A stretch of 64,000 nucleotides of DNA from Candidatus Moraniibacteriota bacterium (GTDB lineage Bacteria > Patescibacteriota > Minisyncoccia > Moranbacterales > UBA1568), in the NCBI GenBank assembly GCA_052034975.1, contig JBPOIA010000003.1, positions 49,251-113,250 on the forward strand. Direction: 5' to 3'. Of the stretch, positions 3,353-59,127 are shown piece after piece. The position numbers and the translations under genes are program-made. The first letter of the stretch is position 1. The number at the start of each line of letters is the position of its first letter. The notes below the pieces were generated by a model that had not been told where the DNA came from, did not search any database, and was given only the letters and a program-made list of their open reading frames with translations.

Positions 3353-4180
3353 ATGGCAATCAAGATCTACAAAAAGAATAACGCCGGTCGCCGCAATATG
3401 TCGGTCGTGAAGCCGGAAGGCGTGACGGATAAGGCTCCGGAGAAGTCTTTGTTGGCTCCGTATAAGAAAAAAGCCGGCCGTTCGGGCGGAAAGATTTCTG
3501 TCCGACATCAGGGTGGTGGCGCCAAGCGTCGGTTCCGAGTGATTGATTTCCGTCAGGAAAAATATGATATTCCGGGTCGTATCGTGGCACTTGAGAAGGA
3601 CCCGAACCGCTCGTCGCTCATCGCGCTCGTTCAGTATGCCGATGGTGAGAAACGTTACATCCTTGCGACCAACGGTATGCGTGCCGGACAGACGGTCTTG
3701 TCTGGGAAAAGCGCCCCGGTCGTCAACGGTAACCGGATGCTTCTGAAAAATATTCCTGCCGGTACGATCATCTGCAATATCGAGATGAAAATCGGGAGAG
3801 GCGGACAGATCGTGCGGAGCGCTGGATCGCAGGCGACCCTGATGGCGCTTGACGGCGAGTTCGCCCAAGTGAAACTCGCATCCGGCGAAATCCGTTTGAT
3901 TCACTCCGAATGCTATGCTACGCTCGGACAGGTGAGCAATTTCGAACATAGCGCTGAACGTATCGGCAAAGCCGGTCGCGCCCGTCATCTGAATCGCCGT
4001 CCGGCGGTCCGTGGAAGCGCGATGAACCCGGTGGATCATCCGCACGGCGGAGGCGAGGGTCGCCAGCCGATCGGTATGCATCCGAAAACCCCGTGGGGTA
4101 AGCCGGCGCTCGGTAAAAAGACACGGAAACGCAAGAAAGCGAGCAACCAGTATATCGTCCGGCGTCGCTCGAAGAAGTAA
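3353..4180 (+). CDS. rplB: 50S ribosomal protein L2
   Basis: Carries the L2 signature GRNxxGxITxRHxGGG ([19 protein letters not shown]) and C-terminal [13 protein letters not shown]. Confidence 0.97.
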
Positions 4181-6729: not shown

Positions 6730-7101
6730 ATGATTCAGGCAGAAACATGGTTGAATGTAGCGGATAACACCGGGGCCAAAATGGTCGAGTGTTTCAAGGT
6801 GCTTGGCGGCACGCGGAAACGTTATGCCAAGCTGGGTGATATCATCGTCGCGTCAGTCAAAGTGGCTGAGCCGCGAGGTATGGTGAAGAAGGGCGATAAG
6901 GTGAAGGCGGTCATTGTCCGTCAGGCGCGTGAGCATCGTCGCAAAGACAATTCCTATATCCGTTTCGACGAAAACGCCGCAGTCATCCTTGAAGGGACGA
7001 GCCAGGATCCCAAAGGAACGCGTATCTTCGGACCGGTAGCCCGCGAACTCCGCGAACGGGGATTTACCAAGATCGTTTCCCTGGCACCGGAAGTTTTGTA
7101 A
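6730..7101 (+). CDS. rplN: 50S ribosomal protein L14
   Basis: [42 protein letters not shown]. Confidence 0.96.
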
Positions 7102-7134
7102 AGAATATTGAACGCACTACAAAGGAAGATATTT

Positions 7135-7440
7135 ATGAAGATCAAGAAAGGCGACCAAGTGAAGATCATTGCCGGTAAGGACCGCGGAAAGCAGGGCGAA
7201 GTGTTGCGTGTGTTTCCTGTGGCCGCGAAGGTGATTGTGAAAGGTGCCAATATCCTCAAGCGCCACATCAAGTCTCGTCGGGATGGCCAAAAAGGTGAGC
7301 GTATAGAGAAAGAGTTTCCCATCCATATTTCGAACGTGATGCTCGTTTGTCCGCATACCGGAAAGCCGACTCGGATCGGCCGAAAGATCGAAAGCGGCGA
7401 GAAGATCCGTATCAGTAAGCGTTCCGGTAAAGCCCTCTAA
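7135..7440 (+). CDS. rplX: 50S ribosomal protein L24
   Basis: MKIKKGDQVKIIAGKDRGKQGEVLRV is a KOW motif. The ATG at 7135 is preceded by AAAGGAAG. The ORF-track start at 7108 is a TTG codon. Confidence 0.92.
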   Translation: MKIKKGDQVKIIAGKDRGKQGEVLRVFPVAAKVIVKGANILKRHIKSRRDGQKGERIEKEFPIHISNVMLVCPHTGKPTRIGRKIESGEKIRISKRSGKAL

Positions 7441-7447
7441 AAGAGTT

Positions 7448-8014
7448 ATGAATACCCAGGCAATTAAAACAATCTACGAGAAAAAAGCCGTTTCTGGACT
7501 ACAGAAAGAGCTCGGCATCAAGAATGTGATGGCGGTGCCGCGCATTTCGAAAGTCGTCGTGAATGTTGGCGTCGGGAAATTCCTGAAGGACCAGAAACAC
7601 GTCGAAGAAGTGGTGAATTCGCTGGAAGCGATTACCGGACAGAAAGTTGTGATGACGCGCGCGCGCAAAGCGATCGCCGGATTCAAGACTCGCGAAGATT
7701 TGGAAATTGGTGCCCGGACAACGCTGCATGGCACCCGGATGTGGGCGTTTCTTGATCGTTTGTTCCATATCGCATTGCCTCGGGTACGTGATTTTCAAGG
7801 CATCTCCCTGAGCGCCGTCGATCACAGCGGAAACTGCAATATCGGCATCAAGGACCATACGATTTTTCCGGAAATCATTCCTGAGAAAGTCCAGCACATT
7901 TTTAGTTTCCAGGTCAACGTCGTAACGACCGCCAAAAACAGAGAAGAAGGGGCCGCGCTGTTTCGTTTGTTGGGAATGCCGTTTGAAAACAGCGGAAATA
8001 AGCAGGAATCCTAA
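7448..8014 (+). CDS. rplE: 50S ribosomal protein L5
   Basis: LGIKNVMAVPRISKVVVNVGVG..VVMTRARKAIAGFKTRE. Confidence 0.95.
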   Translation: MNTQAIKTIYEKKAVSGLQKELGIKNVMAVPRISKVVVNVGVGKFLKDQKHVEEVVNSLEAITGQKVVMTRARKAIAGFKTREDLEIGARTTLHGTRMWAFLDRLFHIALPRVRDFQGISLSAVDHSGNCNIGIKDHTIFPEIIPEKVQHIFSFQVNVVTTAKNREEGAALFRLLGMPFENSGNKQES

Positions 8015-8031
8015 ACGCGCACAAATAATTT

Positions 8032-8217
8032 ATGTCTAAGACATCCACATTCGCAAGAGCAGAGAAAACCCCGAAATTTTCGACCCGTATTGTCAGACGG
8101 TGTTGGAAATGCGGTCGGAAGCGGGGGTATTTGCGCCGGTATGCCATCTGCCGCATCTGCTTTCGCGAGCTCGCCTCAACCGGCGAGATCCCGGGAGTGA
8201 AGAAGTCTTCCTGGTAA
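8032..8217 (+). CDS. rpsZ: 30S ribosomal protein S14 type Z (zinc-binding)
   Basis: 61 aa with [25 protein letters not shown], a CxxC..CxxC zinc ribbon. Confidence 0.93.
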
Positions 8218-8248
8218 ACGGATATAAGCTAACAGCGAGAGAAGAATT

Positions 8249-8653
8249 ATGCTCGATCCAATCGCAGAAATGTTAACCAGAATTCGCAACGCGCAGGCCG
8301 CGGGACACGCACGGGTTTCCGTCCGTTTCTCGAAGCTCAAGCAAGCGATCGCTCAAATCCTCGAACGTGAGGGGTTTGTAGCCCGTGTCGAAAAGGAATC
8401 CGACGGCGTGCACGAGACACTTATTCTCTGGCTGAAATACGAGCAGGTTTCTCCGACAAAAAAAGCGCCAGCTATCCGTGAGATCACCCGAATTTCCAAG
8501 CAAGGTCGTCGTATTTATGTGAAAGGCCACGAAATCGAGAGGGTGAAAAACGGATATGGCATCTCGATCATCTCCACTTCTCAAGGATTGATGACTGGTA
8601 TGGAAGCGCACAAACGCAAGCTGGGTGGGGAATACGTGTGTAAGGTCTGGTAA
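8249..8653 (+). CDS. rpsH: 30S ribosomal protein S8
   Basis: MLDPIAEMLTRIRNAQAAGHARVSV..GISIISTSQGLMTGMEAHKRKLGGEYVCKVW. Confidence 0.96.
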   Translation: MLDPIAEMLTRIRNAQAAGHARVSVRFSKLKQAIAQILEREGFVARVEKESDGVHETLILWLKYEQVSPTKKAPAIREITRISKQGRRIYVKGHEIERVKNGYGISIISTSQGLMTGMEAHKRKLGGEYVCKVW

Positions 8654-21284: not shown

Positions 21285-22031
21285 ATGGAGAAAAATTTCA
21301 AAAGAATATTGACAATAGGAATTCTCATCATCTTGATATCAGGGATCGTTCTTTTTTTGGTGGGTTTTTTTGAAAAGACCAAGATACAAGAGAACTCTTC
21401 TCGGATTTCGTTATCTGATAGGGGAGATGAACAAAAACGAGCCGAACAAAAAGCAATAGAGGATAAAATCAATCAACTTTCCGATACGAAAGAGTGGCAG
21501 TTATTTACCAGTAGAAAGTGTGACTTTTCTTTTATTTATCCTCCTATTGCAAGTATTAATAGTGCATGGATGAACGTTCTTGACCCTCGAGATGCCTGTG
21601 AGCTTGTGGTATACATTCAAGATGGCGTTGTATCATCGGAATATTTTCACTTTCACATCAGGCCTTTACCCTATCCATCTCCATACGAAAACTTTAATCC
21701 GAACAAATTAACAGAAAATACGGTAAAGGACTGGAACGCAAAAAAAGTAGCAGAAGAACTGTTGAATCTCAACAAAACTGTATTTGTAAAAAAATATAAT
21801 AGAGAAAATACCTTAATTCCTATAGTAGAAATTCCTGTGAATGGGAAAAAGGCATACACGTTTTCACTTAATGACGGCTACTTCAATTGGGCTGGTGATT
21901 CACATAATCTTGAAAATAAAACGAGTTTTGCTTATATAGCAGACAATGAGGGGAAAGTATATGAAATCACCTTTCCAAGCAATGATAGACTTTCATTGTT
22001 AATCCTCAAAAGTTTAAAGTTTTCGAACTAA
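21285..22031 (+). CDS. Hypothetical N-terminally membrane-anchored protein encoded in a low-GC (about 33%) segment
   Basis: ATG with AAGGCGG RBS. N-terminal TM ILTIGILIILISGIVLFLVGFF. Composition is markedly more AT-rich than neighbours. No recognisable domain. Confidence 0.6.
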   Translation: MEKNFKRILTIGILIILISGIVLFLVGFFEKTKIQENSSRISLSDRGDEQKRAEQKAIEDKINQLSDTKEWQLFTSRKCDFSFIYPPIASINSAWMNVLDPRDACELVVYIQDGVVSSEYFHFHIRPLPYPSPYENFNPNKLTENTVKDWNAKKVAEELLNLNKTVFVKKYNRENTLIPIVEIPVNGKKAYTFSLNDGYFNWAGDSHNLENKTSFAYIADNEGKVYEITFPSNDRLSLLILKSLKFSN

Positions 22032-22054
22032 ATCCATAACACAAGAAAAAGAAA

Positions 22055-22088
22055 AACGCCTACCTGCATAATTTTGCAGGCAGGCGTT
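22055..22088. terminator. Bidirectional terminator hairpin between convergent genes
   Basis: AACGCCTACCTGCA-TAATT-TTGCAGGCAGGCGTT, a 13/14-bp stem with A/T-rich flanks on both sides. Confidence 0.7.
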
Positions 22089-22105
22089 CATTGTTTCAAG
22101 AAGTT

Positions 22106-23707
22106 TTATGGGATGGCGCCCATATACTCAAACTTCACCGCATCCACAGTGATAGATTTAGCTGTTTCTCCAGTGTTCCCTTGTAGGCTCACGGTCGAAT
22201 TCCCGGTAGCATAGAGATTGTAAGTCCCTATATCTACCCAGCGGTTAGAGCCTTGGGCAGCCGTGTATTGGTTCACAGTCTGGGAGGTATACGTCGTCCC
22301 GTTACTGCTTACGGTATACGTCGTACTCGTGCTGCTCGCGTATGTCGTGTTGGCAGGAACATATACCCATACCCTGTACTGGCCATTCTTGGGTAGCGCG
22401 GGTGACCAATTGGCGGTTCCCGAAGAGTTGGTTTCCTTGCTGAAGATGATGCCGCTATAGCCCAGCTGCGGAGATCCTGGGTTGAAGTTTGCTCCTTGGC
22501 GGCTCCAGTCGCCGATTGTGCTGGACGAGCCATTGCAAGTGGGAGTTGTGGAATTGAGTTTGAAAGTGCCCGTGCACTCGTACGGATGTACGACTAAACT
22601 AAAGGACGTCGACTCTGCTGAATACCACCCGTTGTTGATCAATTCGGAAGGATCCACTCTATTACTGATTTCAGCCCAGCTATAGGGAGTAGTTAGATAG
22701 CTATTGGGATCATTCTTCCGAATTTCGAAGTGCAGATGGGATACATACTGACCATCACCGGTCCCCACCTGCCCAACGGCTGCCCCCTTGAGAACAGGGC
22801 TGTTTTCAGTGCCTACCAGATCAAGCACTGAGTTATAACCCGTTTGACCGGATTTCAGCAGATGTGCATACATCGCATAGACTGTGGTAAGGAGCTCTCC
22901 GGTACCGGTAAGGAAGTATTTACCGGCCGGTGCGTCATGGCGAATGAGCACGGTCTTCCCCCAACCGTCAGAACTGCTTCCATCATTGATGTCTTCAATT
23001 TTGCCATTAGAAATGGCATAGAGAGCCTCACCAAGATCATCGCTCCCGCTTCCCTTGTTCCAGTCTTCGGCTACATGCGGAACACCGTTTGTGTTGTTGA
23101 GAGATCCGTAGCTTTGTTTTTCTGCGCCCCAACCATTGGGACTGGCTATGGTGTAATCCACAGGGTAGCGCATTGAAACGAAGAAGTATTCAGACTTTGA
23201 GAGAATCTTTTGCCCGCCAGCATCAAAGTTGAAATTGCAGTGATAGTTCGAAGATTGGTAATCAAAGTCTGTTTCTTGGTAGACGTCAACCGATGACTTG
23301 AGGTACGCATCATCGAAACAGATGGGATTTGCCAACCCAAACCAATACGGATCATCAGGGTCTTGCGACTGCGTGTACTCGTAGACGTAGTCATTGCCGT
23401 TTCCGTAGATGTCGTCGACGCTGTTGACGAGCAAGACCTTCGGTGAGCTGAAGAACTTGAAGACAGAATACCCACCGTGGAATTTGGCGGTACCGTTGTA
23501 GAAGTAGGTCGCCGCCTTCTCGGCCCCGTAAGAGTCGTTACTCAAGGTGATGATCTGCAACGCTTTGGTGTAAGTCGTTCCGTTGTGGGTATACGGAAGT
23601 ATGTAGTGCCCCGGACTTGTGGGGGCAGTGGCAAAAGCCGCGATCGAGCAGAGGTTTAACAGGAATACGCCGATGAATTTCATCGGTGCGGACAGAATCC
23701 TTCTCAT
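22106..23707 (-). CDS. Secreted M23-family (LytM-like) metallopeptidase with long Ser/Thr/Asn-rich C-terminal domain
   Basis: AGGAG is 8 nt upstream of the ATG at 23707. Signal peptide MKFIGVFLLNLCSIAAFATA. M23 motif GQVGTGDGQYVSHLHFEIRKN (HxH). C-terminal 170 aa are T/S/N/Y-rich (TTYASSTSTTYTVSSNGTTYTSQTV). Confidence 0.8.
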   Translation of the reverse strand: MRRILSAPMKFIGVFLLNLCSIAAFATAPTSPGHYILPYTHNGTTYTKALQIITLSNDSYGAEKAATYFYNGTAKFHGGYSVFKFFSSPKVLLVNSVDDIYGNGNDYVYEYTQSQDPDDPYWFGLANPICFDDAYLKSSVDVYQETDFDYQSSNYHCNFNFDAGGQKILSKSEYFFVSMRYPVDYTIASPNGWGAEKQSYGSLNNTNGVPHVAEDWNKGSGSDDLGEALYAISNGKIEDINDGSSSDGWGKTVLIRHDAPAGKYFLTGTGELLTTVYAMYAHLLKSGQTGYNSVLDLVGTENSPVLKGAAVGQVGTGDGQYVSHLHFEIRKNDPNSYLTTPYSWAEISNRVDPSELINNGWYSAESTSFSLVVHPYECTGTFKLNSTTPTCNGSSSTIGDWSRQGANFNPGSPQLGYSGIIFSKETNSSGTANWSPALPKNGQYRVWVYVPANTTYASSTSTTYTVSSNGTTYTSQTVNQYTAAQGSNRWVDIGTYNLYATGNSTVSLQGNTGETAKSITVDAVKFEYMGAIP

Positions 23708-23894: not shown

Positions 23895-25295
23895 ATGCAA
23901 GAATCGTTTTTCAGGGACAAGAAGATCACGGTATTTGGCCTCGGTCTTAACGCGGGTGGCGTTGGCACGGCCAGGTTTCTCGCGGAACAGGGCGCGCGTG
24001 AGATCATCGTGACTGACATCAAGAGTCGCGAAGATCTCGCTTCGTCGGTCGAGAAGCTTGCCAAATACAAGAATATTACCTTCGTGCTTGGTCAACACCG
24101 GCCGGAGGACTTTTCGCGTGTCGATATGGTGATCAAAAATCCCGTGATCCCGTGGACGAACGAATATGTGAAACTCGCCGAGAAGCACGATGTGCCGGTT
24201 GAGATGGATTCCAGCCTCTTTTTTCGATTATGCAGAGCGCCGATTATTGGCGTAACTGGCACGAAGGGCAAGACGACGACTGCGATGCTTATCGCTCATA
24301 TTCTCGAAACTGCCGGCCGGAAAGTTCTTCGCGCCGGTATCGGGCAGATTGGCGTACTTGGTGTGCTGAACAAAATTACACCGGAGACAACGGTAGTATT
24401 CGAACTGTCTTCGTGGCGATTGTCGGCGCTCGCACGCACCAAGAAAAGCCCATCGATCGCGGTCATCACAAATCTTTATCCCGACCATCTTAATTATTAT
24501 AAGACGATGGAGGCGTACGCGGCGGACAAAAAGAATATCTTTTTATTCCAAAAGCGAAACGACACGCTCATCGCGAACGCCGATCAACCTGAAGTCCGCG
24601 AGATGGCGCAGGATGCGCCGGGCGGATGCGTTTGGTTTTCAAATAAACAGGCGATCGATGGTGATGGCGTCTGGCGCGAAGACGGGATGCTCTTTGTGCG
24701 GCAGGGAGGAAAACAAAGCGTGCTTTTGCCGCTTGAACATACCCGACTTGTAGGAGAGCATAATATCGGGAATATCGCCGCGGCCGCCCTCGCCGCCCTC
24801 GTCGCCGGAGTGTCTGCAAAGGAAATCCGTTTTGGCATCGAGAGTTTTTCCGGCGTGCCACATCGATTGGAGTATATAAGGGAAAAAGACAGCGTTCGGT
24901 ATTACAATGATACGGCGGCTACCATTCCCGAAGCGGCGATCGCCGCTCTTCGATCGTTTTCGCAGCCGGTGATTCTCATCTGCGGCGGCAGCGACAAGCG
25001 GCTCGTCTTCGATGCATTCGCTGACGAGATTTTCGCTCATTCCAAAGGAGTGATCTTTCTGAAAGGCGAAGGGACGGATAAACTCGCGTTTTCGCTCTCG
25101 GAACGCTTGGCACGGGAGGGACGGAAGATGAATTTTGAGATCGTGGAAAGTATGGGCAAGGCAGTGGAACTCGCCTCTCGGAGCGCTGAGCCGGGTGATA
25201 TCGTGCTTCTCTCGCCTGGCGCGGCGAGCTTTGGTCTCTTCCGGAACGAATTCGACCGAGGCGAGCAGTTCCGCGTCGCTGTCCAATCACTCTGA
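23895..25295 (+). CDS. murD: UDP-N-acetylmuramoyl-L-alanine--D-glutamate ligase (Mur ligase family)
   Basis: N-terminal Rossmann KKITVFGLGLNAGGVGTARFL. Mur ligase P-loop IGVTGTKGKTTT and DHLNYY. Length 466 aa. Confidence 0.8.
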   Translation: MQESFFRDKKITVFGLGLNAGGVGTARFLAEQGAREIIVTDIKSREDLASSVEKLAKYKNITFVLGQHRPEDFSRVDMVIKNPVIPWTNEYVKLAEKHDVPVEMDSSLFFRLCRAPIIGVTGTKGKTTTAMLIAHILETAGRKVLRAGIGQIGVLGVLNKITPETTVVFELSSWRLSALARTKKSPSIAVITNLYPDHLNYYKTMEAYAADKKNIFLFQKRNDTLIANADQPEVREMAQDAPGGCVWFSNKQAIDGDGVWREDGMLFVRQGGKQSVLLPLEHTRLVGEHNIGNIAAAALAALVAGVSAKEIRFGIESFSGVPHRLEYIREKDSVRYYNDTAATIPEAAIAALRSFSQPVILICGGSDKRLVFDAFADEIFAHSKGVIFLKGEGTDKLAFSLSERLAREGRKMNFEIVESMGKAVELASRSAEPGDIVLLSPGAASFGLFRNEFDRGEQFRVAVQSL

Positions 25296-25308: not shown

Positions 25309-25355
25309 TTGACGGATGTTTGGAAAAGCCCTAATATACCCCCAGAGGGTATATT
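25309..25355 (+). promoter_or_regulatory. Sigma70-type promoter (TTGACG-17-TAATAT) overlapped by a 9-bp perfect inverted repeat AATATACCC-N5-GGGTATATT, a CsoR-type operator candidate
   Basis: -35 at 25309-25314, -10 at 25332-25337. Inverted repeat 25333-25355 spans the -10 and TSS. Lies 17 nt upstream of the CsoR-family gene. Confidence 0.65.
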
Positions 25356-25371
25356 TTAATTTTCTCGGCGT

Positions 25372-25614
25372 ATGAAAACTCAGCGAAACAAAGTGCTGTC
25401 GCGCATCGCCCGTATTGAAGGACAATTGAAAGGTATCCGCCGTATGGTGGAAGAGAAGGAGGAATGTCTCGATATCATCACGCAAGTGAGCGCCATCCGT
25501 GAAGCGGTCGGAATGCTCGGGGTCGAGCTTCTGAAGGATGATATGACGTGCAAATGGGACGGCAAGAAAAAGATCGATGAAGCCTATCTAAAAAACTTGT
25601 TTAAAATGCAATAA
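25372..25614 (+). CDS. CsoR/RcnR/CstR-family (DUF156) metal/persulfide-sensing transcriptional repressor
   Basis: 80 aa. LSRIARIEGQLKGIRRMVEEKEECLDIITQVSAIREA is the family N-terminal helix. Cys at about 32 and about 60 (DMTCK) without the CsoR His ligand, so CstR-like. A palindromic operator lies upstream (see promoter feature). Confidence 0.75.
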   Translation: MKTQRNKVLSRIARIEGQLKGIRRMVEEKEECLDIITQVSAIREAVGMLGVELLKDDMTCKWDGKKKIDEAYLKNLFKMQ

Positions 25615-25619
25615 CGCGT

Positions 25620-26855
25620 ATGAATCAGCCCTTTGAAGCCGCGCAGGCGCAGCTTCGTGCCGTCGAAGAGCTCGTTCGTATCGATCGAAATATCTTCGAG
25701 AGACTCCTCTTTCCGGAGCGCATTATCGAGGTGTCGATTCCTGTCCGAATGGATGACGGTACGACTAAAGTGTTTATCGGGTATCGTGCGCAGTACAACA
25801 GTGCCCGCGGTCCGTATAAGGGCGGGATTCGTTTTCATCCGGGCGTAACGCGCGAAGAAGTGACGGCACTCTCGATGTGGATGACGTGGAAAACGGCGGT
25901 CGTCGATATCCCGCTTGGTGGCGGTAAAGGAGGGGTCACTGTGGACGTGAAAACGTTGTCCGATCGGGAATTGGAAGCGGTGTCCCGAGGATATATCCGG
26001 GCGATTGCGCCGTTCATCGGGAGCGATCTCGATGTGCCGGCACCGGACGTTTCCACTGATGCGCGCATAATGGGATGGATGCTCGATGAGTACGAATCAG
26101 TGACGGGTCGCCACGTCCCGGGTGTCATTACTGGTAAACCGCTTTCACTTGAAGGTTCGCTCGGTCGTGAATACGCGACGGCGCTGGGAGCCTTTTTCGT
26201 GCTAGAACGGGCGCGGGAAGAACTCCATCTGCCGAAGGATGCGAGCGTGGCGATTCAGGGATTTGGGAATGGTGGATCGCATCTGGCACGACTGCTTGCA
26301 GAGAAAGGGTACAGAGTCGTGGCGATCGCGGATTCCAAATCGACGGTATACCGAAGCGATGGTCTCGATGTATCGGAAATCGCCGAACATAAGCGTACGG
26401 CGGGTAATTTGAAAACCTGTACTGGTTGTGAGAAACTGCGAAGCGAAGATGTCCTGACTGTTTCCGCCGATATCCTCGTTCCGGCCGCGCTCGAAGGAGC
26501 GATCCATCGGGGGAATGCTGCTGACATCCGAGCGAAGCTTATTGTCGAGGTGGCGAATGGGCCGGTGACACCTGAAGCGGATGCGATCCTTTATGACCGC
26601 GGTGTCACGGTGGTGCCGGATATCCTCGCTAATGCTGGTGGTGTTACGGTGTCGTATTTCGAACAGGTACAGAATGCGGCACATTATCCGTGGACGGAAG
26701 ACGAGGTGAATCAGCGTTTACAAGAGAAGATGGAATCAGCGTTTCGGGATGTTTCCCGAGCGAAAGAGGAGTATAATACGGATATGCGGACCGCTGCGTA
26801 TACACTGGCCGTGAAGCGTGTAGCGCAAGCGATGCGCGACCGTGGCCGTTCCTGA
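25620..26855 (+). CDS. gdhA: Glutamate dehydrogenase
   Basis: YRAQYNSARGPYKGGIRFHPGVT..KTAVVDIPLGGGKGG..AIQGFGNGGS. Confidence 0.9.
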   Translation: MNQPFEAAQAQLRAVEELVRIDRNIFERLLFPERIIEVSIPVRMDDGTTKVFIGYRAQYNSARGPYKGGIRFHPGVTREEVTALSMWMTWKTAVVDIPLGGGKGGVTVDVKTLSDRELEAVSRGYIRAIAPFIGSDLDVPAPDVSTDARIMGWMLDEYESVTGRHVPGVITGKPLSLEGSLGREYATALGAFFVLERAREELHLPKDASVAIQGFGNGGSHLARLLAEKGYRVVAIADSKSTVYRSDGLDVSEIAEHKRTAGNLKTCTGCEKLRSEDVLTVSADILVPAALEGAIHRGNAADIRAKLIVEVANGPVTPEADAILYDRGVTVVPDILANAGGVTVSYFEQVQNAAHYPWTEDEVNQRLQEKMESAFRDVSRAKEEYNTDMRTAAYTLAVKRVAQAMRDRGRS

Positions 26856-26923: not shown

Positions 26924-27871
26924 ATGTATGATGTGATAATAATCGGCGGGGGACCGGGAGGAGTGGCGGCGGGCGTGTATGCGGCGCGCAAGCGGATGAA
27001 GACGCTCTTCATCACCGAAAGTTTCCAAAGCCAGTCGGCGGTGTCGGCGAGCATCGAGAATTGGATCGGTACGGTGACGATTCCGGGTTGGGAATTCGCC
27101 GCCGCACTCGAAAAACACCTGCGCGCGCAGGAGGGTATAGAAATCAATACCGGTGAAAAAGTGTCCGGTATCGAGAGGCTTCCCGAAGGCGGATTCGCCG
27201 TTTTGACGGATAGGGGTGGACGTTCCGAAACGAAAACGATCATTGTGGCATCGGGCGGGCGGCACCGGCATCTGGATGTTCCCGGTGAAGAGAAGTTCAA
27301 AGGTAAGGGCGTCGTGTATTGTTCAACCTGCGATGCGCCGTTTTTTCGTGACAAGAGAGTCGTCGTGGTGGGCGGCGGAAACGCGGGACTCGAAGCTGTG
27401 GAAGACTTGCTGCCGTATGCGAAAGAAATTGTCATTCTTGTTCGATCGGGAGAGCTCAAGGGTGATCCGGTAACCAAAGAGAAGGTTCTGGCTGATCCGA
27501 AAGTGAGCGTTGTCTTTTTCGGCCTGACGCAGGAAATTGTCGGTGAACAGAAAGTCGAAGGATTGCGATACGAAGACGCGCAAACCGGTGAAGAAAAAAC
27601 GATTCCGACGGACGGCGTGTTTGTGGAAATCGGTATGGTGCCGAACACGGAGTTTGTGAAAGGTCTGCTCGATACGAATGAGCGCGGGGAAATCAAAATC
27701 GATGGCAAGACGGCTGCGACATCCTGTTCGGGAATCTTCGCGACCGGAGATGCGACCGACGTGCCATACAAGCAGAACAATATTTCCGCCGGTTACGGTG
27801 TGGTCGCTGCCCTTTCGGCGTACGACCTTTTCCGAAAAGCGAAAATATCTGGCGGCATTGACAAGAGGTAG
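26924..27871 (+). CDS. trxB: Thioredoxin reductase-like FAD/NAD(P) disulfide oxidoreductase
   Basis: YDVIIIGGGPGGVAAGVYAAR. Redox motif VVYCSTCDAPFF (CxxC; canonical TrxR is CATC). Second Rossmann VVVVGGGNAGLEA. GIFATGD. Confidence 0.78.
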   Translation: MYDVIIIGGGPGGVAAGVYAARKRMKTLFITESFQSQSAVSASIENWIGTVTIPGWEFAAALEKHLRAQEGIEINTGEKVSGIERLPEGGFAVLTDRGGRSETKTIIVASGGRHRHLDVPGEEKFKGKGVVYCSTCDAPFFRDKRVVVVGGGNAGLEAVEDLLPYAKEIVILVRSGELKGDPVTKEKVLADPKVSVVFFGLTQEIVGEQKVEGLRYEDAQTGEEKTIPTDGVFVEIGMVPNTEFVKGLLDTNERGEIKIDGKTAATSCSGIFATGDATDVPYKQNNISAGYGVVAALSAYDLFRKAKISGGIDKR

Positions 27872-27886
27872 AAAAGATGCTATAAT
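27858..27886 (+). promoter_or_regulatory. Perfect consensus sigma70 promoter TTGACA-17-TATAAT embedded in the last codons of trxB
   Basis: TTGACA at 27858-27863, 17-nt spacer, TATAAT at 27881-27886. Predicted TSS about 27893, 12 nt before a terminator hairpin. Confidence 0.7.
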
Positions 27887-27904
27887 GGATAAAGAATGGA
27901 AAAA

Positions 27905-27944
27905 GCGGGTGGTCCCAAAAGAGGGAACACCCGCTTTCTTTTTC
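27905..27944 (+). terminator. Intrinsic terminator hairpin GCGGGTGGTCCC-AAAAGAG-GGGAACACCCGC followed by TTTCTTTTT
   Basis: 12-bp GC-rich stem plus U-tract. A second hairpin CCAAGCG-ATGGGGAC-GCTTGG follows at 27945-27966. Confidence 0.7.
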
Positions 27945-28077
27945 CAAGCGATGGGGACGCTTGGGGGAAGAAATGGTTCTTTAAAAGAAAAACAAAGACA
28001 AAAATACCAAGACTTTCGTCTGGAAAAATAAAGACAAGTCTCCTTGTCTTCGCCTCCCAGAGAGGCTTTTTGCAACA

Positions 28078-28111
28078 CCGTTGCTAGATAAACGATCAGC
28101 AACGGTTTTTT
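28078..28111 (+). terminator. Terminator-like hairpin CCGTTGCT-N12-AGCAACGG followed by TTTTTT, immediately upstream of murA
   Basis: 8-bp stem and T6 tract. Third hairpin in the 240-bp trxB-murA spacer. Confidence 0.6.
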
Positions 28112-45332: not shown

Positions 45333-47789
45333 TTAGGATCCGTTCGTGGTACGGAAAGAAAGGACCGTTTCTGGCGTCAGGACGAAGACTTCGCCAGTTT
45401 TTTCGTTTATAGAAACAGCGAGACCGCTGCCGAACCGTTCCGAGAAGTATTGTGAGAGTATCGTTCCATCCTGGTTCCAGACCACGACACGCTTGTTTTC
45501 TGGATCGAGCACAGAGATGTGTCCGAGTGCTGACTGGACAGAGAGAGATCGTACCTGGAGCGGTGCTGTCGGGGATTCAAGCGTTCCGGTTTCCCGTCCG
45601 CGCGAGAATATCCGCACAGAAGACCGGTCGGTCGAAAGAAAGATGTTTTCGCTGACAGCGAAAGAAGCGGTATCGTCGAGGGAGAGAGAATTTTTTAGCC
45701 AGATGGTTGGCGCTCCAAATCCGCCTTCGGCGCGGGGAAAGCGGTAAATCTGATCGTTTTCGCTGTCGAGGACGTAGAGGTAGGTGAGATAGGTTCCGAT
45801 TGAGCGGATACGGGAATTTTCCGGTAGAGAGAGGTCGTTTCTGACGAATGTCTTGCTAAGAGGGCTCCATGCGAAGAGTCCTCCATCTTCGGTGACGATG
45901 AAGATGAGACGAAGATCCTCCATCGCTGCGGCGAGCAGGGCACGGCGATTATCCGGCAGAGCATAGCGTTTTCCTTCTCTCGGGAAGAAAATGTTTCCGG
46001 AAGAGATAAGGAAGAGATCGTTGTTGAGGATGACGGAAGCCAAGAGGGGTTCGTCTGCGGAGAAAAATTCGGTTATTTCTCCTGTATGTCGGGCATTCTT
46101 CTCGTTTTCGATCGAAAGCGTGGTGACGGCGGGCGATTCTTCCTGTGGTGTTATTGTCGTTTCGTTTTCGGTGATGGAATCGTTCTTAACGAACAAGAAG
46201 AAGAGACCGCTGCAGATGATGAAGAGTCCGATGATGCCGCCGAGGACGATTCTTTTTGAGAGCGGTTCAAGCCGTCCATAGAAGGCGAGGCATCCGTGAC
46301 CGATGGTGCCGACGCTTCTGAGAACGAATCTTGTCCATCGCAAGAGGAAATCACCGGTATGCTTCAGGCCAAAGAGGAATGTCTCGTATGATGAGCGGAG
46401 CGTTTCCGTGAGGGCTTGTCGTGGCGCCGTTGCCGATATTTCGGTTTCCATCGGTTGTTTTGGTGTATTCTTTCGATAAAAAGCTGCCAACCTTTCTTTC
46501 AGGAAAGGAGGAATATCTTCGTTGTCCGGCTGATGATTCGCTTCCGAAGATGCCGAAAAAGCCGGAGATTCAGAAAAAGATTCCTGTCGCAAAGAACCCG
46601 TATGATTTTCTTGTGGCGAAAACGGTCGGATATCAGTCTTTTTTTTCTGGGAGACGCGGTTCTTCCATTGATGACGCAGAGAACGTGCGATAGTCCTGGC
46701 GGCGGACCTGGCTTCTCCGGAAAGGCTTTGCAGCGAAATCGCGCTTTGTTTCCGTGCCTTGCGCAGCCACTTTTTCTGGTTATTGAGGATTCTGCCGGCG
46801 GAAGAAGCCATATCTTGCAGAAGGAGGGACGCGCGTTCCAAAAAAGGATGCGATGCCGGTTCCCCAGGCGTATCTCCTTGGACATAAATATGTCCCGTTT
46901 TGGAATCAACGTATTCGATCGTCTTTTCTGTTGGAAGAGCGGCGGAAGACGGGAGTAAGTGGGCGGTTTCTTTTGGGATGGCCGGTTTGAACGCGGCCTT
47001 GCTGAAAACGTTTTCGATGGCGGAATCGGTCTTCTCAGTTTCTTTTTTTCGGTGAGGTTTTGGAAGAGGGGAAAGTGGTTTTTCAGAGAGATCGACGACG
47101 ATGACTCCCGCCATATCGAGCTCATTTACGATGGCGGTTCTCAGGAATTGCCGAAAACGTTCAGTATCATCCATACGGAGCGCGTTCTTGCGTAGGTCTT
47201 CGGGTGAGAAGAGTCGGAAGATCTCCGGAGAAGCAAGGATGACCTTGTCGTCAGGCAGCAGGCGTCCGCTTGAGATTTCGACGAAGGTCTTGAGCGGATG
47301 AGCGGAAGACTCTTCGGAAGCGAGGCCTTCGGCGATGTCGGAGAGACCCTCGTTTCGCAGCAAGAGAATCTTTCCTTCGCCGGCCGCGGAGAAATGGAAA
47401 TTATTTTTTTCGAACACGCCGATAACGCCATGAAACTTTCCAAGCCAGGCGACGTTGCCATGCTTCACGAGCTCAGCGAGCGCGAGGTTTATTTTGTGGA
47501 GCGCCCCTTCGAAGCTTTCCACGGCGCCGCGTCTCGGATTGATGAAATACTCCTTTTTCGCGACAGAAGCGAGGAAGTTTACGATATAAGCGGAATCTTC
47601 GCTTCGTTCGGAGATCTCAAATACGCCGACGAGCGTTCCGAGGCCGGCTGCCGTGACATTCTCTCCGTTTTGGCGGAATGTCTTGATGTATGGCTCGAAC
47701 GAACGTCCGTTTGCTGCAAGGATTTCAGACACAGAAATTTCGAGCTCAGGAAGCGGTTTGGTTTTTTCCGGGTATCTTTTTTCTGGCAT
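45333..47789 (-). CDS. Hypothetical 818-aa bitopic protein: cytoplasmic N-domain, single TM, extracytoplasmic beta-propeller-like repeats
   Basis: ATG at 47789. TM IVLGGIIGLFIICSGLFFLFV at about aa 520. C-terminal repeats of hydrophobic-strand motifs (LFLISSGNIFF, IFIVTEDGGLFAW, YLYVLDSENDQIYRF, ISVLDPENKRVVVWN, VFVLTPETVLSF). Convergent with, and 24 bp from, the ATPase gene. Confidence 0.6.
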   Translation of the reverse strand: MPEKRYPEKTKPLPELEISVSEILAANGRSFEPYIKTFRQNGENVTAAGLGTLVGVFEISERSEDSAYIVNFLASVAKKEYFINPRRGAVESFEGALHKINLALAELVKHGNVAWLGKFHGVIGVFEKNNFHFSAAGEGKILLLRNEGLSDIAEGLASEESSAHPLKTFVEISSGRLLPDDKVILASPEIFRLFSPEDLRKNALRMDDTERFRQFLRTAIVNELDMAGVIVVDLSEKPLSPLPKPHRKKETEKTDSAIENVFSKAAFKPAIPKETAHLLPSSAALPTEKTIEYVDSKTGHIYVQGDTPGEPASHPFLERASLLLQDMASSAGRILNNQKKWLRKARKQSAISLQSLSGEARSAARTIARSLRHQWKNRVSQKKKTDIRPFSPQENHTGSLRQESFSESPAFSASSEANHQPDNEDIPPFLKERLAAFYRKNTPKQPMETEISATAPRQALTETLRSSYETFLFGLKHTGDFLLRWTRFVLRSVGTIGHGCLAFYGRLEPLSKRIVLGGIIGLFIICSGLFFLFVKNDSITENETTITPQEESPAVTTLSIENEKNARHTGEITEFFSADEPLLASVILNNDLFLISSGNIFFPREGKRYALPDNRRALLAAAMEDLRLIFIVTEDGGLFAWSPLSKTFVRNDLSLPENSRIRSIGTYLTYLYVLDSENDQIYRFPRAEGGFGAPTIWLKNSLSLDDTASFAVSENIFLSTDRSSVRIFSRGRETGTLESPTAPLQVRSLSVQSALGHISVLDPENKRVVVWNQDGTILSQYFSERFGSGLAVSINEKTGEVFVLTPETVLSFRTTNGS

Positions 47790-57979: not shown

Positions 57980-58051
57980 GCCACCTTAGCTCAGAGGTAG
58001 AGCAGCGGTTTTGTAAACCGTTGGTCCTCGGTTCAAATCCGAGAGGTGGCT
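57980..58051 (+). tRNA. tRNA-Thr (anticodon UGU)
   Basis: Cloverleaf fits: acceptor GCCACCT/AGGTGGC, D-arm GCTC..GAGC, anticodon stem GCGGT/ACCGT with loop TTTGTAA (U33, UGU, A37), T-arm CTCGG-TTCAAAT-CCGAG, discriminator T. No encoded CCA. Confidence 0.85.
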
Positions 58052-58084
58052 CCGAGTGTTGTAAAGAGAAGAGTATTTTGAAAA

Positions 58085-58167
58085 GGGTAGGTGGCGGAGT
58101 GGTCAATCGCAGCTGACTGTAAATCAGCCGACTTCGGTCTACGGGGGTTCGAATCCCTCCCTGCCCA
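58085..58167 (+). tRNA. tRNA-Tyr (anticodon GUA), type II with long variable arm
   Basis: Acceptor GGGTAGG/CCTGCCC (one G-U), anticodon stem GCTGA/TCAGC with loop CTGTAAA, 14-nt variable arm, T-arm GGGGG-TTCGAAT-CCCTC, discriminator A. Confidence 0.85.
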
Positions 58168-58177
58168 CGAGAATAAA

Positions 58178-58219
58178 CTATAAAAGCACCATTACCGGGT
58201 GCTTTTATAGTTTTGTTTT
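58178..58219 (+). terminator. Terminator hairpin after tRNA-Tyr: CTATAAAAGCACC-ATTACCG-GGTGCTTTTATAG + TTTTGTTTTG
   Basis: 13-bp perfect stem plus T-rich tail. A sequence-related hairpin recurs at 58369-58410 after the second copy of the tRNA 3' end. Confidence 0.65.
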
Positions 58220-58243
58220 GAGGGAGGGATTCGAACGGGCAGG
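58220..58243 (+). repeat. Inverted partial copy of tRNA-Tyr T-arm/3' end (GAGGGAGGGATTCGAAC) followed by GGGCAGG, the complement of the tRNA-Tyr 3' acceptor strand
   Basis: Reverse complement GTTCGAATCCCTCCCTC matches tRNA-Tyr 58147-58162 at 16 of 17 positions. Confidence 0.6.
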
Positions 58244-58349
58244 AACGAGTAGCGAGCGAAGGCGAGCTAAACGAGTGTCGACGGATGCGCGTGAGCAAAC
58301 ATTCGTCGCTGCCCCGGGCAACGAAGTCGTCAGCAGACGACGAGGCGAA

Positions 58350-58366
58350 AATCCCTCCCTGCCCAC
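58350..58366 (+). repeat. Direct 17-bp repeat of the tRNA-Tyr 3' end (AATCCCTCCCTGCCCAC)
   Basis: Identical to 58152-58168. Followed, like the tRNA copy, by a related AT-rich terminator hairpin and TTTTGTTTG-AG(G/T)..GGAGGGAT. Confidence 0.6.
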
Positions 58367-58511
58367 AGAAAGTAAAAAGTACCCTGCGGGGTATTTTTTA
58401 CTTTTGTTTGAGTTGGAGGGATGAAAAGGGCGATAGCTAGACTTTTTGTGAAAAAACGTTAGAATAAGAAAAGTCTCAACGAATAGTTGAGGCTCGTATT
58501 TTTGAAAATAA

Positions 58512-58584
58512 GCCGTTGTAGCTCAGCTGGTAGAGCACCACCATGGTAAGGTGGGGGTCACCGGTTCAATCCCGGTCAACGGCT
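58512..58584 (+). tRNA. tRNA-Thr (anticodon GGU)
   Basis: Acceptor GCCGTTG/CAACGGC, D-arm GCTC-AGCTGGTA-GAGC, anticodon stem CCACC/GGTGG with loop ATGGTAA, T-arm ACCGG-TTCAATC-CCGGT, discriminator T. Confidence 0.8.
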
Positions 58585-58677
58585 CAGAAAGAACGGAAAA
58601 TGAAGGTTCAATGTTGACGGAACGACGGTTTTCGCGTACAGTGAAAAAGCTTTGTAAATCGTTTGAAGGTTGGAGTT

Positions 58678-58839
58678 ATGGGACAAATCAAGGATACGAT
58701 GGTAAAACTCAAATGTTCTTCGTGCAGCCGCATCACGCACTACACCAAGCGGAACAAGAAAAAGGTCAAGGAAAAGCTTGAGCTCTCCAAGTATTGCAAG
58801 TTTTGCAAGAAGAACGTGATACACACCGAGAGCAAGTAG
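58678..58839 (+). CDS. rpmG: 50S ribosomal protein L33 (zinc-ribbon form)
   Basis: Absent from the ORF track (53 aa). ATG with GAAGGTTGGAG RBS. MGQIKDTMVKLKCSSCSRITHYTKRNKKKVKEKLELSKYCKFCKKNVIHTESK fits the L33 pattern C-x2-C..Y..KN..(K/R)LEL.KYC.xC.KH..H.E.K. Lies between tRNA-Thr and tRNA-Trp as in the conserved thr-tyr-gly-thr / rpmG-trp neighbourhood. Confidence 0.85.
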   Translation: MGQIKDTMVKLKCSSCSRITHYTKRNKKKVKEKLELSKYCKFCKKNVIHTESK

Positions 58840-58879
58840 CTCTCGGTTTTTCAGATAATTTGTTACAATAGTCTTGAAA

Positions 58880-58950
58880 GGGAGTGTCGTATAGTGGCAG
58901 TACAACGGTCTCCAAAACCGTTAGCGGGGGTCCGATTCCCTCCACTCCTG
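58880..58950 (+). tRNA. tRNA-Trp (anticodon CCA)
   Basis: Anticodon arm ACGGT-CTCCAAA-ACCGT is nearly identical to the E. coli tRNA-Trp anticodon arm. Acceptor GGGAGTG/CACTCCT (G1-U72), T-arm GGGGG-TCCGATT-CCCTC. The predicted C at position 55 is unusual and should be checked with a covariance model. Confidence 0.75.
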
Positions 58951-59055
58951 CGGAGTAAAATAAAAAATTGAAGAATCAAAGATGGAAATTGATGTGTCTG
59001 CCAAAGGCGGAGAGGACGTTTTTTCATTTTGATATTTGATTTTTTATATTGTTAC

Positions 59056-59127
59056 GGCCCTATCGTCTATCGGCTAGGACATCAGGTTCTCATCCTGGAA
59101 AGCGGGGTTCGATTCCCCGTAGGGCTA
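59056..59127 (+). tRNA. tRNA-Glu (anticodon CUC)
   Basis: TCGTCTA..GGAC D-arm, 4-nt variable loop and GGGGTTCGATTCCCC T-arm, as in bacterial tRNA-Glu. Anticodon loop TTCTCAT. Confidence 0.8.

Follow-up and report, generated by a model that had tools for sequence, protein, structure and literature searches.

What does a repressor of the CsoR family sense when the gene behind it encodes a glutamate dehydrogenase? Characterized members of this family respond to Cu(I), Ni/Co, formaldehyde or persulfides. We addressed the question for a locus in a 64,000-nucleotide (nt) stretch of a Candidatus Moraniibacteriota genome (assembly GCA_052034975.1, contig JBPOIA010000003.1, positions 49,251 to 113,250 of the forward strand), which we call the window. 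Here, a gene for an 80-residue protein is preceded by a palindrome, and a first-pass annotation made from the letters alone had read the two as a repressor and its operator. We conclude with high confidence that the protein is a CsoR-family autorepressor that binds this palindrome and controls an operon including a gene for a thioredoxin-reductase-like enzyme (the trxR-like gene). A conserved operator over the regulator's own promoter, together with an operon that carries this enzyme and a glutamate dehydrogenase (gdh), makes a cysteine redox switch, not a metal sensor, the most likely function. The full account, in which a dithiol switch governs a thioredoxin-system operon, we favour with more reserve.

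Sequence and predicted structure both place the protein in the CsoR family. It matches PF02583 ('metal-sensitive transcriptional repressor', CsoR/RcnR) at 69.8 bits against a cut-off of 22.8, over profile positions 2-60 of 78. An AlphaFold monomer model (predicted local distance difference test score 82) forms helices at residues 2-27, 32-55 and 70-76, the third of them, alpha3, being short and of low confidence. The best 18 structure matches returned by Foldseek from the PDB are all FrmR, CsoR, CstR or InrS proteins (probability 1.00, TM-scores 0.56-0.70). Sequence matches in the same database comprise Geobacillus and Streptomyces CsoR, S. pneumoniae CstR (SpCstR), 6ahx (deposited as CsoRGz), InrS and FrmR, and the best of them are the Cu(I)-sensing CsoR proteins 4m1p and 4adz. 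Judged by these comparisons, and in line with the first-pass assignment to the CsoR/CstR family, the protein is a CsoR-family repressor. Source annotations call it, generically, a 'metal-sensitive transcriptional regulator' or a member of the 'FrmR/CsoR family'.

The identical protein is recorded in NCBI and Logan assemblies, along with more than 100 distinct homologues of 75-89% identity whose source labels read Candidatus Moranbacteria or Moraniibacteriota (Patescibacteria, candidate phyla radiation). A HMMER search of 1.84 billion cluster representatives returned only 23 clusters at E <= 1e-10, and ~25 distant representatives could be aligned across the full length of the regulator. The clade is a small and distinct subfamily of PF02583, and it appears to be restricted to Patescibacteria. 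We retrieved 79 genomic loci with relatives of the regulator for comparison and aligned 32 close relatives for conservation analysis.

The palindrome upstream of the gene is the perfect inverted repeat that the first pass had reported. Its arms, AATATACCC (25333-25341) and GGGTATATT (25347-25355), are 9 bp long, 100% complementary and separated by 5 nt. Across 44 distinct Moranbacteria promoters, the family consensus is TAATATACCCCcAgAGGGTATATTTT. The palindrome is kept in all 44 promoters with nearly invariant ATACCCC/GGGTAT arms, so the possibility that it would prove unconserved in related genomes, raised at the outset as grounds for abandoning the operator, did not materialize. Both the -35 box and the arms approach the highest possible information content, and the flanks carry close to none. 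The -10 hexamer reads TAATAT in 32 promoters and TAnnAT in 43. It is separated from the -35 box by 17 nt in 33 promoters; seven have a 16-nt spacer and four an 18-nt one. Outer arm positions vary among the Moranbacteria loci, mostly without compensation, and the ATACCC/GGGTAT core never changes; this pattern fits a protein-binding site and not an RNA stem. The overlap with the -10 box that had been proposed is also real, and since the site covers both this box and the transcription start of the regulator's promoter, it implies autorepression by promoter occlusion.

Where the upstream gene is not murD (L013, L034, L044 and L047-L052; loci are identified by L numbers), the palindrome stays with the regulator. 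In Wolfebacteria (L048-L052, ~3935-3975), whose regulators are 44-57% identical, it occupies the interval from the -35 to the -10 box instead of covering the latter. A TTGACA -35 box is fused to or overlaps the left operator arm there, and the core promoter is still occluded; the promoter has been rebuilt around an unchanged binding site. A further relative, 57% identical (L046), carries a different upstream site, CATATACTAGGGGGGAGTATAG, at ~3930-3960. We take this site to resemble the TACT-G6-AGTA type of RcnR/FrmR operators, which suggests that operator type has switched within the regulator subfamily.

The operator belongs to a recognizable class. CsoR/RcnR proteins generally bind pseudo-palindromes with a run of at least four G or C (PMC10318464), and the core ATATACCCCCAGAGGGTATAT contains such a run within a site that overlaps a promoter. 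CstR binds the S. mitis cst operator, AAATATACCCTTATGGGGTATATTAAA, in vitro (PMC8643695), and the arms of that site and of the window operator are identical. When metagenome contigs were scanned without bias for ATATACCCC-N3-AGGGTATAT, a CsoR-family gene lay within 600 nt of 81 of 120 matches, and farther off for another 14. These matches were mostly CsoR promoters of other phyla, with only two Moranbacteria loci and one lead (L117) among them. The operator motif is a CsoR-family signature across unrelated phyla.

Within the window, ATACCC-N5-GGGTAT occurs once without mismatch, compared with a chance expectation of ~0.008 (2 x 64000 / 4^12). Allowing up to two mismatches gives four matches against 1.04 expected. 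Of the three imperfect ones, one falls within adk, another within gap and the third in the promoter region of a small gene on the minus strand, putatively that of ribosomal protein L31; we treat all three as chance. Perfect 9-bp inverted repeats with loops of 3-8 nt number eight in the window against ~1.5 expected; because such a repeat is not rare in itself, the case for the operator rests on its sequence, position and conservation. A search for further copies, recommended in the first pass, came back empty: none beyond chance level in the window and none in the ~380 kb of related DNA covered by 44 loci of 8 kb each. Each related locus has a single operator, always at the regulator's promoter, and the operator evidence so far describes one local operon. 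Nearly invariant operators, combined with ~80% identity of the regulator across hundreds of Moranbacteria contigs, indicate strong selection on the regulator.

The metagenomic lead L117 (Ga0334882_1006191, 6736-8387) deserves separate mention. An identical core, ATATACCCCCAGAGGGTATAT, lies directly upstream of a gene for a 217-residue protein with two thioredoxin-fold CxxC motifs (CEFC and CPYC) that resembles a protein disulfide oxidoreductase, followed by a CATC thioredoxin reductase. No CsoR gene was detected on the stretch examined, and the site may mark a distant member of the regulon in a different organism.

We next turn to what the operator controls. The first-pass annotation saw the gdh gene that begins 5 nt past the regulator stop codon and called the regulon unclear; it missed the trxR-like gene one further downstream, which proves to be a nearly invariant partner, and gdh itself is a recurrent operon member. 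Moranbacteria loci follow the order amidohydrolase, murD, regulator, an optional gene, the trxR-like gene, murA and mreB. Of the 41 Moranbacteria loci with enough sequence, 40 have the trxR-like gene downstream of the regulator and in the same orientation, at gaps of 9-150 nt. It directly follows the regulator in 8 loci (gaps of 9-92 nt); gdh intervenes in ~18 loci plus the window, and a short-chain dehydrogenase (Pfam adh_short) in 14.

Similar modules recur at greater distances. Wolfebacteria have the regulator followed by trxA (WCGPC) and trxR. Elsewhere, we found regulator, SBF-family permease, trxA, gdh and trxR (L044) and regulator, trxA and malic enzyme (L047). Relatives with 38-50% identity show regulator-trxA-gdh (L201), regulator-trxA-miaA (L202), regulator-trxA (L203/L204), regulator-gdh-trxR (L205) and murD-regulator-gdh (L206/L207), with the same operator upstream of the regulator in L201, L202 and L205. 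In all, 55 of 58 patescibacterial loci have trxR, trxA or gdh next to the regulator, and the contigs of the remaining three end within 900 nt of it; gdh adjoins the regulator in 25 of the 58, including the distant L201, L205 and L206/L207. Among 28 CsoR-family loci of other phyla, by comparison, trxR is adjacent in none, gdh in none and trxA in two.

Those two control loci, L055 and L063 (both Anaerolineae), have a thioredoxin gene nearby, and the CsoR-like protein of L055 carries Tyr at the position of the Cu-binding His (…DEYIEQC…). They may represent a second thioredoxin-linked clade that lacks this His.

Between the start of the regulator and the start of the trxR-like gene, the plus strand of the window contains no terminator-like site except a weak 5-pair match within gdh (25811-25826). 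With one operator per locus and no clear intervening terminator, the downstream genes would most simply be controlled by co-transcription.

The product of the trxR-like gene, 315 residues long, matches Pyr_redox_2 at E 1.7e-37. Its best PDB match is the C-terminal module of AhpF, to which it aligns over its full length (1hyu residues 213-520, E 5.6e-67); alignments to low-molecular-weight thioredoxin reductases are somewhat weaker (best E 3.3e-52). It lacks the N-terminal domain of AhpF. NCBIfam scores fall below equivalog level for both candidates, at 309 bits against a cut-off of 503 for TIGR03140 (AhpF) and 260 against 343 for TIGR01292 (TrxR). The redox-active CSTC is kept in all 39 Moranbacteria orthologues; the Wolfebacteria enzymes have CATC. 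We predict a flavoprotein like the AhpF C-terminal module or a low-molecular-weight thioredoxin reductase, encoded by what would be the conserved output gene. The genes inserted between regulator and reductase all encode dehydrogenases dependent on nicotinamide adenine dinucleotide (phosphate) (NAD(P)), namely glutamate dehydrogenase, short-chain dehydrogenase or malic enzyme. For the window gdh product, the best NCBIfam model is GdhA_Arch, with a score under its cut-off. The recurrence of such dehydrogenases in this position suggests that they may supply the reductase with NAD(P)H.

In the alignment of 32 close relatives, R11, E16, G17, Q18, C32, D56, D57, C60, K61, W62 and much of the C-terminus are invariant. 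C32 and C60, the two cysteines that the first pass had located approximately, are present in 32 of 32 and are at least 90% conserved in the ~25 distant clusters, in which position 57 is Asp or Glu. HMMER alignments without gaps pair C32 with C30 of SpCstR and with the first Cu ligand of CsoR, and D57 with N55 of SpCstR and the His of both S. lividans CsoR and 6ahx. N55 of SpCstR is described as the substitute for the Cu(I)-binding His (PMC8643695). By the canonical pattern, the second Cys would align with K61; the invariant Cys of this family is C60, one residue earlier. The two Cys lie 28 residues apart in each of the 32 family members and 27-29 apart across the wider subfamily, compared with 29 in SpCstR (C30/C59) and in seven control CsoR-like sequences. 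No His occurs at positions 50-65 in the sensor region of the aligned relatives, as the first pass had observed for the Cu(I) site, nor is a His or Pro conserved at the N-terminus in this alignment. That end of the protein is variable in length as well as in sequence (the window protein begins MKTQRN), and we therefore assign no W ligand.

From this alignment, the fingerprint would be x-C-(D/E)-C with a shortened Y-Z spacing, with C32 at X, D57 at Y and C60 one residue before canonical Z. D56 was also considered for Y, on the basis of anchoring at the C-terminal Cys, and was ruled out by the ungapped alpha1-alpha2 alignment to four solved proteins, which gives D57; in distant relatives, too, it is position 57 that keeps an acidic residue. 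Comparison with fingerprint positions, which the first pass had advised, sets the regulator apart from three known types: Cu(I)-sensing CsoR (x-C-H-C), in which D57 takes the place of the His; RcnR and InrS (H-C-H-H or H-C-H-C, with an N-terminal His), since Y is Asp; and FrmR, defined by the Pro2 amine with Cys35 and an frmA neighbour, no frmA-like gene having been seen next to the regulator. With the CstR fingerprint (x-C-x-C, 29-residue spacing, no His) it shares two invariant Cys and the lack of His, but not the spacing.

These features can be assembled into a feedback circuit. The reduced regulator, as a tetramer or a pair of tetramers by analogy with its family, would bind ATATACCCC-N3-AGGGTATAT and block RNA polymerase at the -10 box of its own promoter, silencing a three-gene operon of regulator, glutamate dehydrogenase and AhpF-like thioredoxin reductase. 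The sensor would be the Cys32/Cys60' pair, accompanied by the acidic Asp57 where Cu(I) sensors have their His. Oxidation of the dithiol to an intersubunit disulfide, or to a per- or polysulfide bridge, would free the regulator from DNA. The derepressed operon would then provide a disulfide reductase and an NAD(P)H-generating dehydrogenase, and the restored reducing power would re-reduce the repressor and close the loop. There is precedent for such control within the CsoR family: DNA binding by CstR is controlled by Cys oxidation (PMC8643695), and an intermolecular disulfide weakens DNA binding by TTHA1953 (PMC10318464). General disulfide or peroxide stress would be the inducer that best fits the output. 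Tentatively, and with slightly more doubt than belief, we extend this proposal to the whole clade. It may be an unrecognized CsoR subfamily confined to Patescibacteria, defined by C-x27-C and an acidic wedge, that acts as a dedicated sensor of disulfide or oxidative stress and switches on a reducing module. In that module, an NAD(P)H-generating dehydrogenase (gdh, malic enzyme or short-chain dehydrogenase) would be co-expressed with thioredoxin reductase, thioredoxin or both.

Several alternatives were weighed against the redox switch. The one that survives best is a true CstR-type sensor of persulfides (reactive sulfur species), with cysteines bridged by a di-, tri- or tetrasulfide and a reductase acting on persulfides or polysulfides. 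The first-pass annotation had leaned this way, calling the protein CstR-like and persulfide-sensor-like, and the resemblance on which it drew holds: a pair of Cys without the His, a pattern also found in the x-C-x-C CstR clusters (PMC8643695), to which the operator arms shared with the S. mitis cst operator can now be added. Enterococcal and streptococcal CstR operons also include a pyridine-nucleotide disulfide oxidoreductase, CoA persulfide reductase (PMC8643695), and a YgaP-like transmembrane gene lies upstream in one distant relative of the regulator. Against it, no sulfurtransferase/rhodanese, persulfide dioxygenase, SQR, TauE or CoA-persulfide reductase was seen among the genes examined beside the regulator in the 58 loci, where the partners are instead thioredoxin, TrxR and NAD(P)-dependent dehydrogenases. 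Moreover, the wedge residue is Asp/Glu and not Asn, the Cys spacing is 28 and not 29, and the regulator belongs to a separate small clade, that of the 23 clusters described above. We consider a persulfide sensor unlikely.

The output genes could also be read as a detoxification set. In an FrmR-like sensor of electrophiles or aldehydes, a carbonyl or quinone would modify Cys32, and the dehydrogenases (gdh, short-chain) and reductase would remove the compound. FrmR is indeed among the best structure and sequence matches, and a short-chain dehydrogenase replaces gdh in the 14 Moranbacteria loci mentioned. FrmR chemistry, however, requires the Pro2 N-terminal amine, and the N-terminus here is variable; the second Cys is conserved although FrmR does not need one; no frmA-type gene was seen beside the regulator; and thioredoxin itself is a partner in several lineages. 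This explanation is quite improbable.

A metal sensor, released from DNA by Cu(I) or another metal at Cys32, Asp57 and Cys60 in the manner of CsoR, RcnR or InrS, is what the annotated name and a superfamily made up mainly of metal sensors would predict. A Cys2-carboxylate site could in principle bind metal, and a ZIP transporter gene lies upstream in one distant relative. Yet the His of x-C-H-C is replaced by Asp/Glu, with no conserved N-terminal His, and the conserved partners are redox enzymes. As the first pass had stated for the immediate surroundings, metal-efflux genes are missing: the neighbours of the regulator that were examined in the 58 loci included no copA, copZ or rcnA-type gene, and no large open reading frame scanned in the window matched a P-type ATPase. 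We regard metal sensing as very improbable.

Least probable of all is that the palindrome is mainly an intrinsic terminator of murD and its likeness to a CsoR operator incidental: a scan flags the 9-bp stem followed by TTTAATTTTCT, no terminator-like structure other than this hairpin (-9.3 kcal/mol) was found from the murD stop codon to the regulator gene, and in most Moranbacteria loci the right arm runs into a stretch of T, but the arms are conserved in sequence and not in pairing alone, the element accompanies the regulator without murD, the T-run is absent in Wolfebacteria, the site overlaps an equally conserved -35/-10 pair, the same motif lies beside CsoR genes in unrelated phyla, and the intergenic fold z-score is only -0.87. 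RNA structure as the palindrome's main function was rejected on this z-score and the sequence-level conservation, despite the favourable hairpin energy. A secondary, dual role as murD terminator has a small but real chance of being correct.

Some observations weigh against the redox switch itself. The function assigned to the regulator clade comes from sequence comparison and should be read as a prediction. Its Cys-Cys spacing is unlike that of every characterized family member. C60 falls in a low-confidence loop after alpha2 of a model that is a monomer only, so that the proximity of C32 and C60' across protomers is assumed. We infer co-transcription from short gaps, and in the window the gap between gdh and the trxR-like gene is 68 nt, where an internal promoter is possible. 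In one locus (L013, JBAQCV010000055.1), regulator and gdh are present but trxR is missing within 4 kb. A search of the 64-kb window for thioredoxin, peroxiredoxin and glutaredoxin motifs found none, which places the partner of the reductase somewhere other than nearby. Finally, the gene linkage would suit several thiol-reactive inducers alike, among them peroxide, disulfide stress, persulfides and electrophiles.

L013 is unusual in other respects. Its upstream gene is not murD, no other Moranbacteria locus for which 4 kb of downstream sequence exists lacks the trxR-like gene, and L013 appears to be rearranged.

Coordinates of the features at the regulator locus, in window positions.
Feature	Position	Strand	Evidence or remark
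murD, upstream gene	23895-25295		
-35 box TTGACG	25309..25314	+	promoter scan; TTGAC at the same place in 44/44 Moranbacteria promoters
-10 box TAATAT	25332..25337	+	promoter scan; 17-nt spacer from -35; overlaps left operator arm
Predicted operator AATATACCC-CCAGA-GGGTATATT, pseudo-palindrome	25333..25355	.	inverted repeat, conserved in relatives
80-residue CsoR-family repressor gene (predicted)	25372..25614	+	Pfam PF02583, E 2.6e-19
Glutamate dehydrogenase (ELFV family)	25620..26855	+	Pfam PF00208 + PF02812
AhpF-like / thioredoxin-reductase-like flavoprotein gene	26924..27871	+	Pfam Pyr_redox_2
Terminator-like hairpin after trxR-like gene	27935..27973	+	16 pairs

The hairpin after the trxR-like gene may mark the end of the operon, an assignment made uncertain by a consensus promoter upstream of it (27858-27886). 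This promoter matches the consensus perfectly (TTGACA-17-TATAAT, preceded by a TG) and is embedded in the 3' end of the trxR-like gene. It is followed by the 16-pair hairpin and then by a terminator-like hairpin at 28052-28066, before murA. The region 27858-28110 could serve murA as a long structured leader or as an attenuator; it has no match in Rfam.

Other parts of the window also merit a record. Between the amidohydrolase gene and murD, positions 21285-23707 encode a 248-residue protein (plus strand, no Pfam match) and a 533-residue M23 peptidase with Golvesin_C (minus strand). The amidohydrolase gene and murD are only ~70-100 nt apart in most of ~40 related Moranbacteria loci, and the segment therefore looks like a lineage-specific insertion. 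At 39608-47789, two large open reading frames without Pfam match (815 residues, plus strand; 818 residues, minus strand) flank an 829-residue protein with weak matches to TrwB/HerA-type ATPases, and this region could be a secretion, DNA-transfer or pilus-like module. Five tRNA genes occupy the plus strand at 57980-59127, and perfect 9-bp hairpins near this cluster, at 58182, 58825 and 59281, are probably terminators.

To our knowledge, almost nothing is known of transcriptional regulation in Patescibacteria, or of how their reduced-genome cells cope with oxygen and thiol stress. A large similarity-network survey of the CsoR family left several large clusters uncharacterized (PMC8643695), and our literature search found no report tying a CsoR-family regulator to thioredoxin genes or describing CsoR in the candidate phyla radiation. 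If the proposed circuit is true, it would be the first defined transcriptional redox circuit in this radiation and would add a fifth effector class to the family. That thioredoxin reductase is repeatedly paired with gdh or malic enzyme gives a hint, too, of the way in which reductant is made in these organisms. The proposal introduces no new principle; it offers a clear and cheaply testable prediction of a different CsoR output in a poorly understood group, and an 80-residue protein and a 23-bp operator are easily studied in vitro without culturing the organism.

How the predicted circuit compares with known systems can be taken from output to sensor. The output enzyme shares with the AhpF C-terminal module and low-molecular-weight thioredoxin reductases its FAD (flavin adenine dinucleotide) and NAD(P)H domains and a CxxC centre; it differs in lacking the N-terminal thioredoxin-fold domain of AhpF, in having CSTC as opposed to CATC or CPHC, and in scoring below the equivalog cut-offs. 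Thioredoxin genes are regulated elsewhere by Spx (Bacillus trxA/trxB), sigmaR-RsrA (Streptomyces trxBA) and OxyR, which share the proposed logic of a thiol sensor that responds to disulfide or oxidative stress by inducing the thioredoxin system and is reset by it. Spx is an RNA-polymerase-binding activator, RsrA an anti-sigma factor and OxyR a LysR-type activator, and all are unrelated to the operator-occluding repressor proposed here.

Closer parallels lie within the CsoR family. With Cu(I)-sensing CsoR (M. tuberculosis, B. subtilis, S. lividans, Geobacillus), which provides the best PDB sequence matches, the regulator shares the helical fold, a GC-tract pseudo-palindromic operator over the promoter and predicted autoregulation; it departs from them in D57 for the Cu-binding His, the lack of nearby copA/copZ and its output genes. 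CstR (S. aureus, E. faecalis, S. pneumoniae/S. mitis; sequence similarity network clusters 4 and 10, PMC8643695) has in common with it the PF02583 fold, two Cys, no His at Y and identical operator arms in S. mitis, as well as relief of repression by Cys oxidation, which is documented for CstR and would apply by inference here. The genes under CstR, however, encode sulfurtransferases, persulfide dioxygenase and CoA persulfide reductase, in contrast to a thioredoxin system and NAD(P) dehydrogenases; Y is Asn in CstR and Asp/Glu here; X-Z spacing is 29 there and 28 here; the C-terminal region of the window regulator is shorter and divergent, its Pfam match stopping at 60 of 78; and its clade is apparently Patescibacteria-restricted. 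TTHA1953 of Thermus thermophilus, which controls sox sulfur-oxidation genes (PMC10318464), is a non-metal member of the family with disulfide-weakened DNA binding and so a precedent for a redox switch, but its operator, TACNNTACNNNNGTANNGTA, has no G/C tract, its regulon consists of sox genes and its lineage is different. In fold, operator and mode of repression, the Moranbacteria regulator is thus ordinary for its family; what sets it apart is its output, a thioredoxin system with NAD(P)H dehydrogenases, together with its sensor motif and its lineage.

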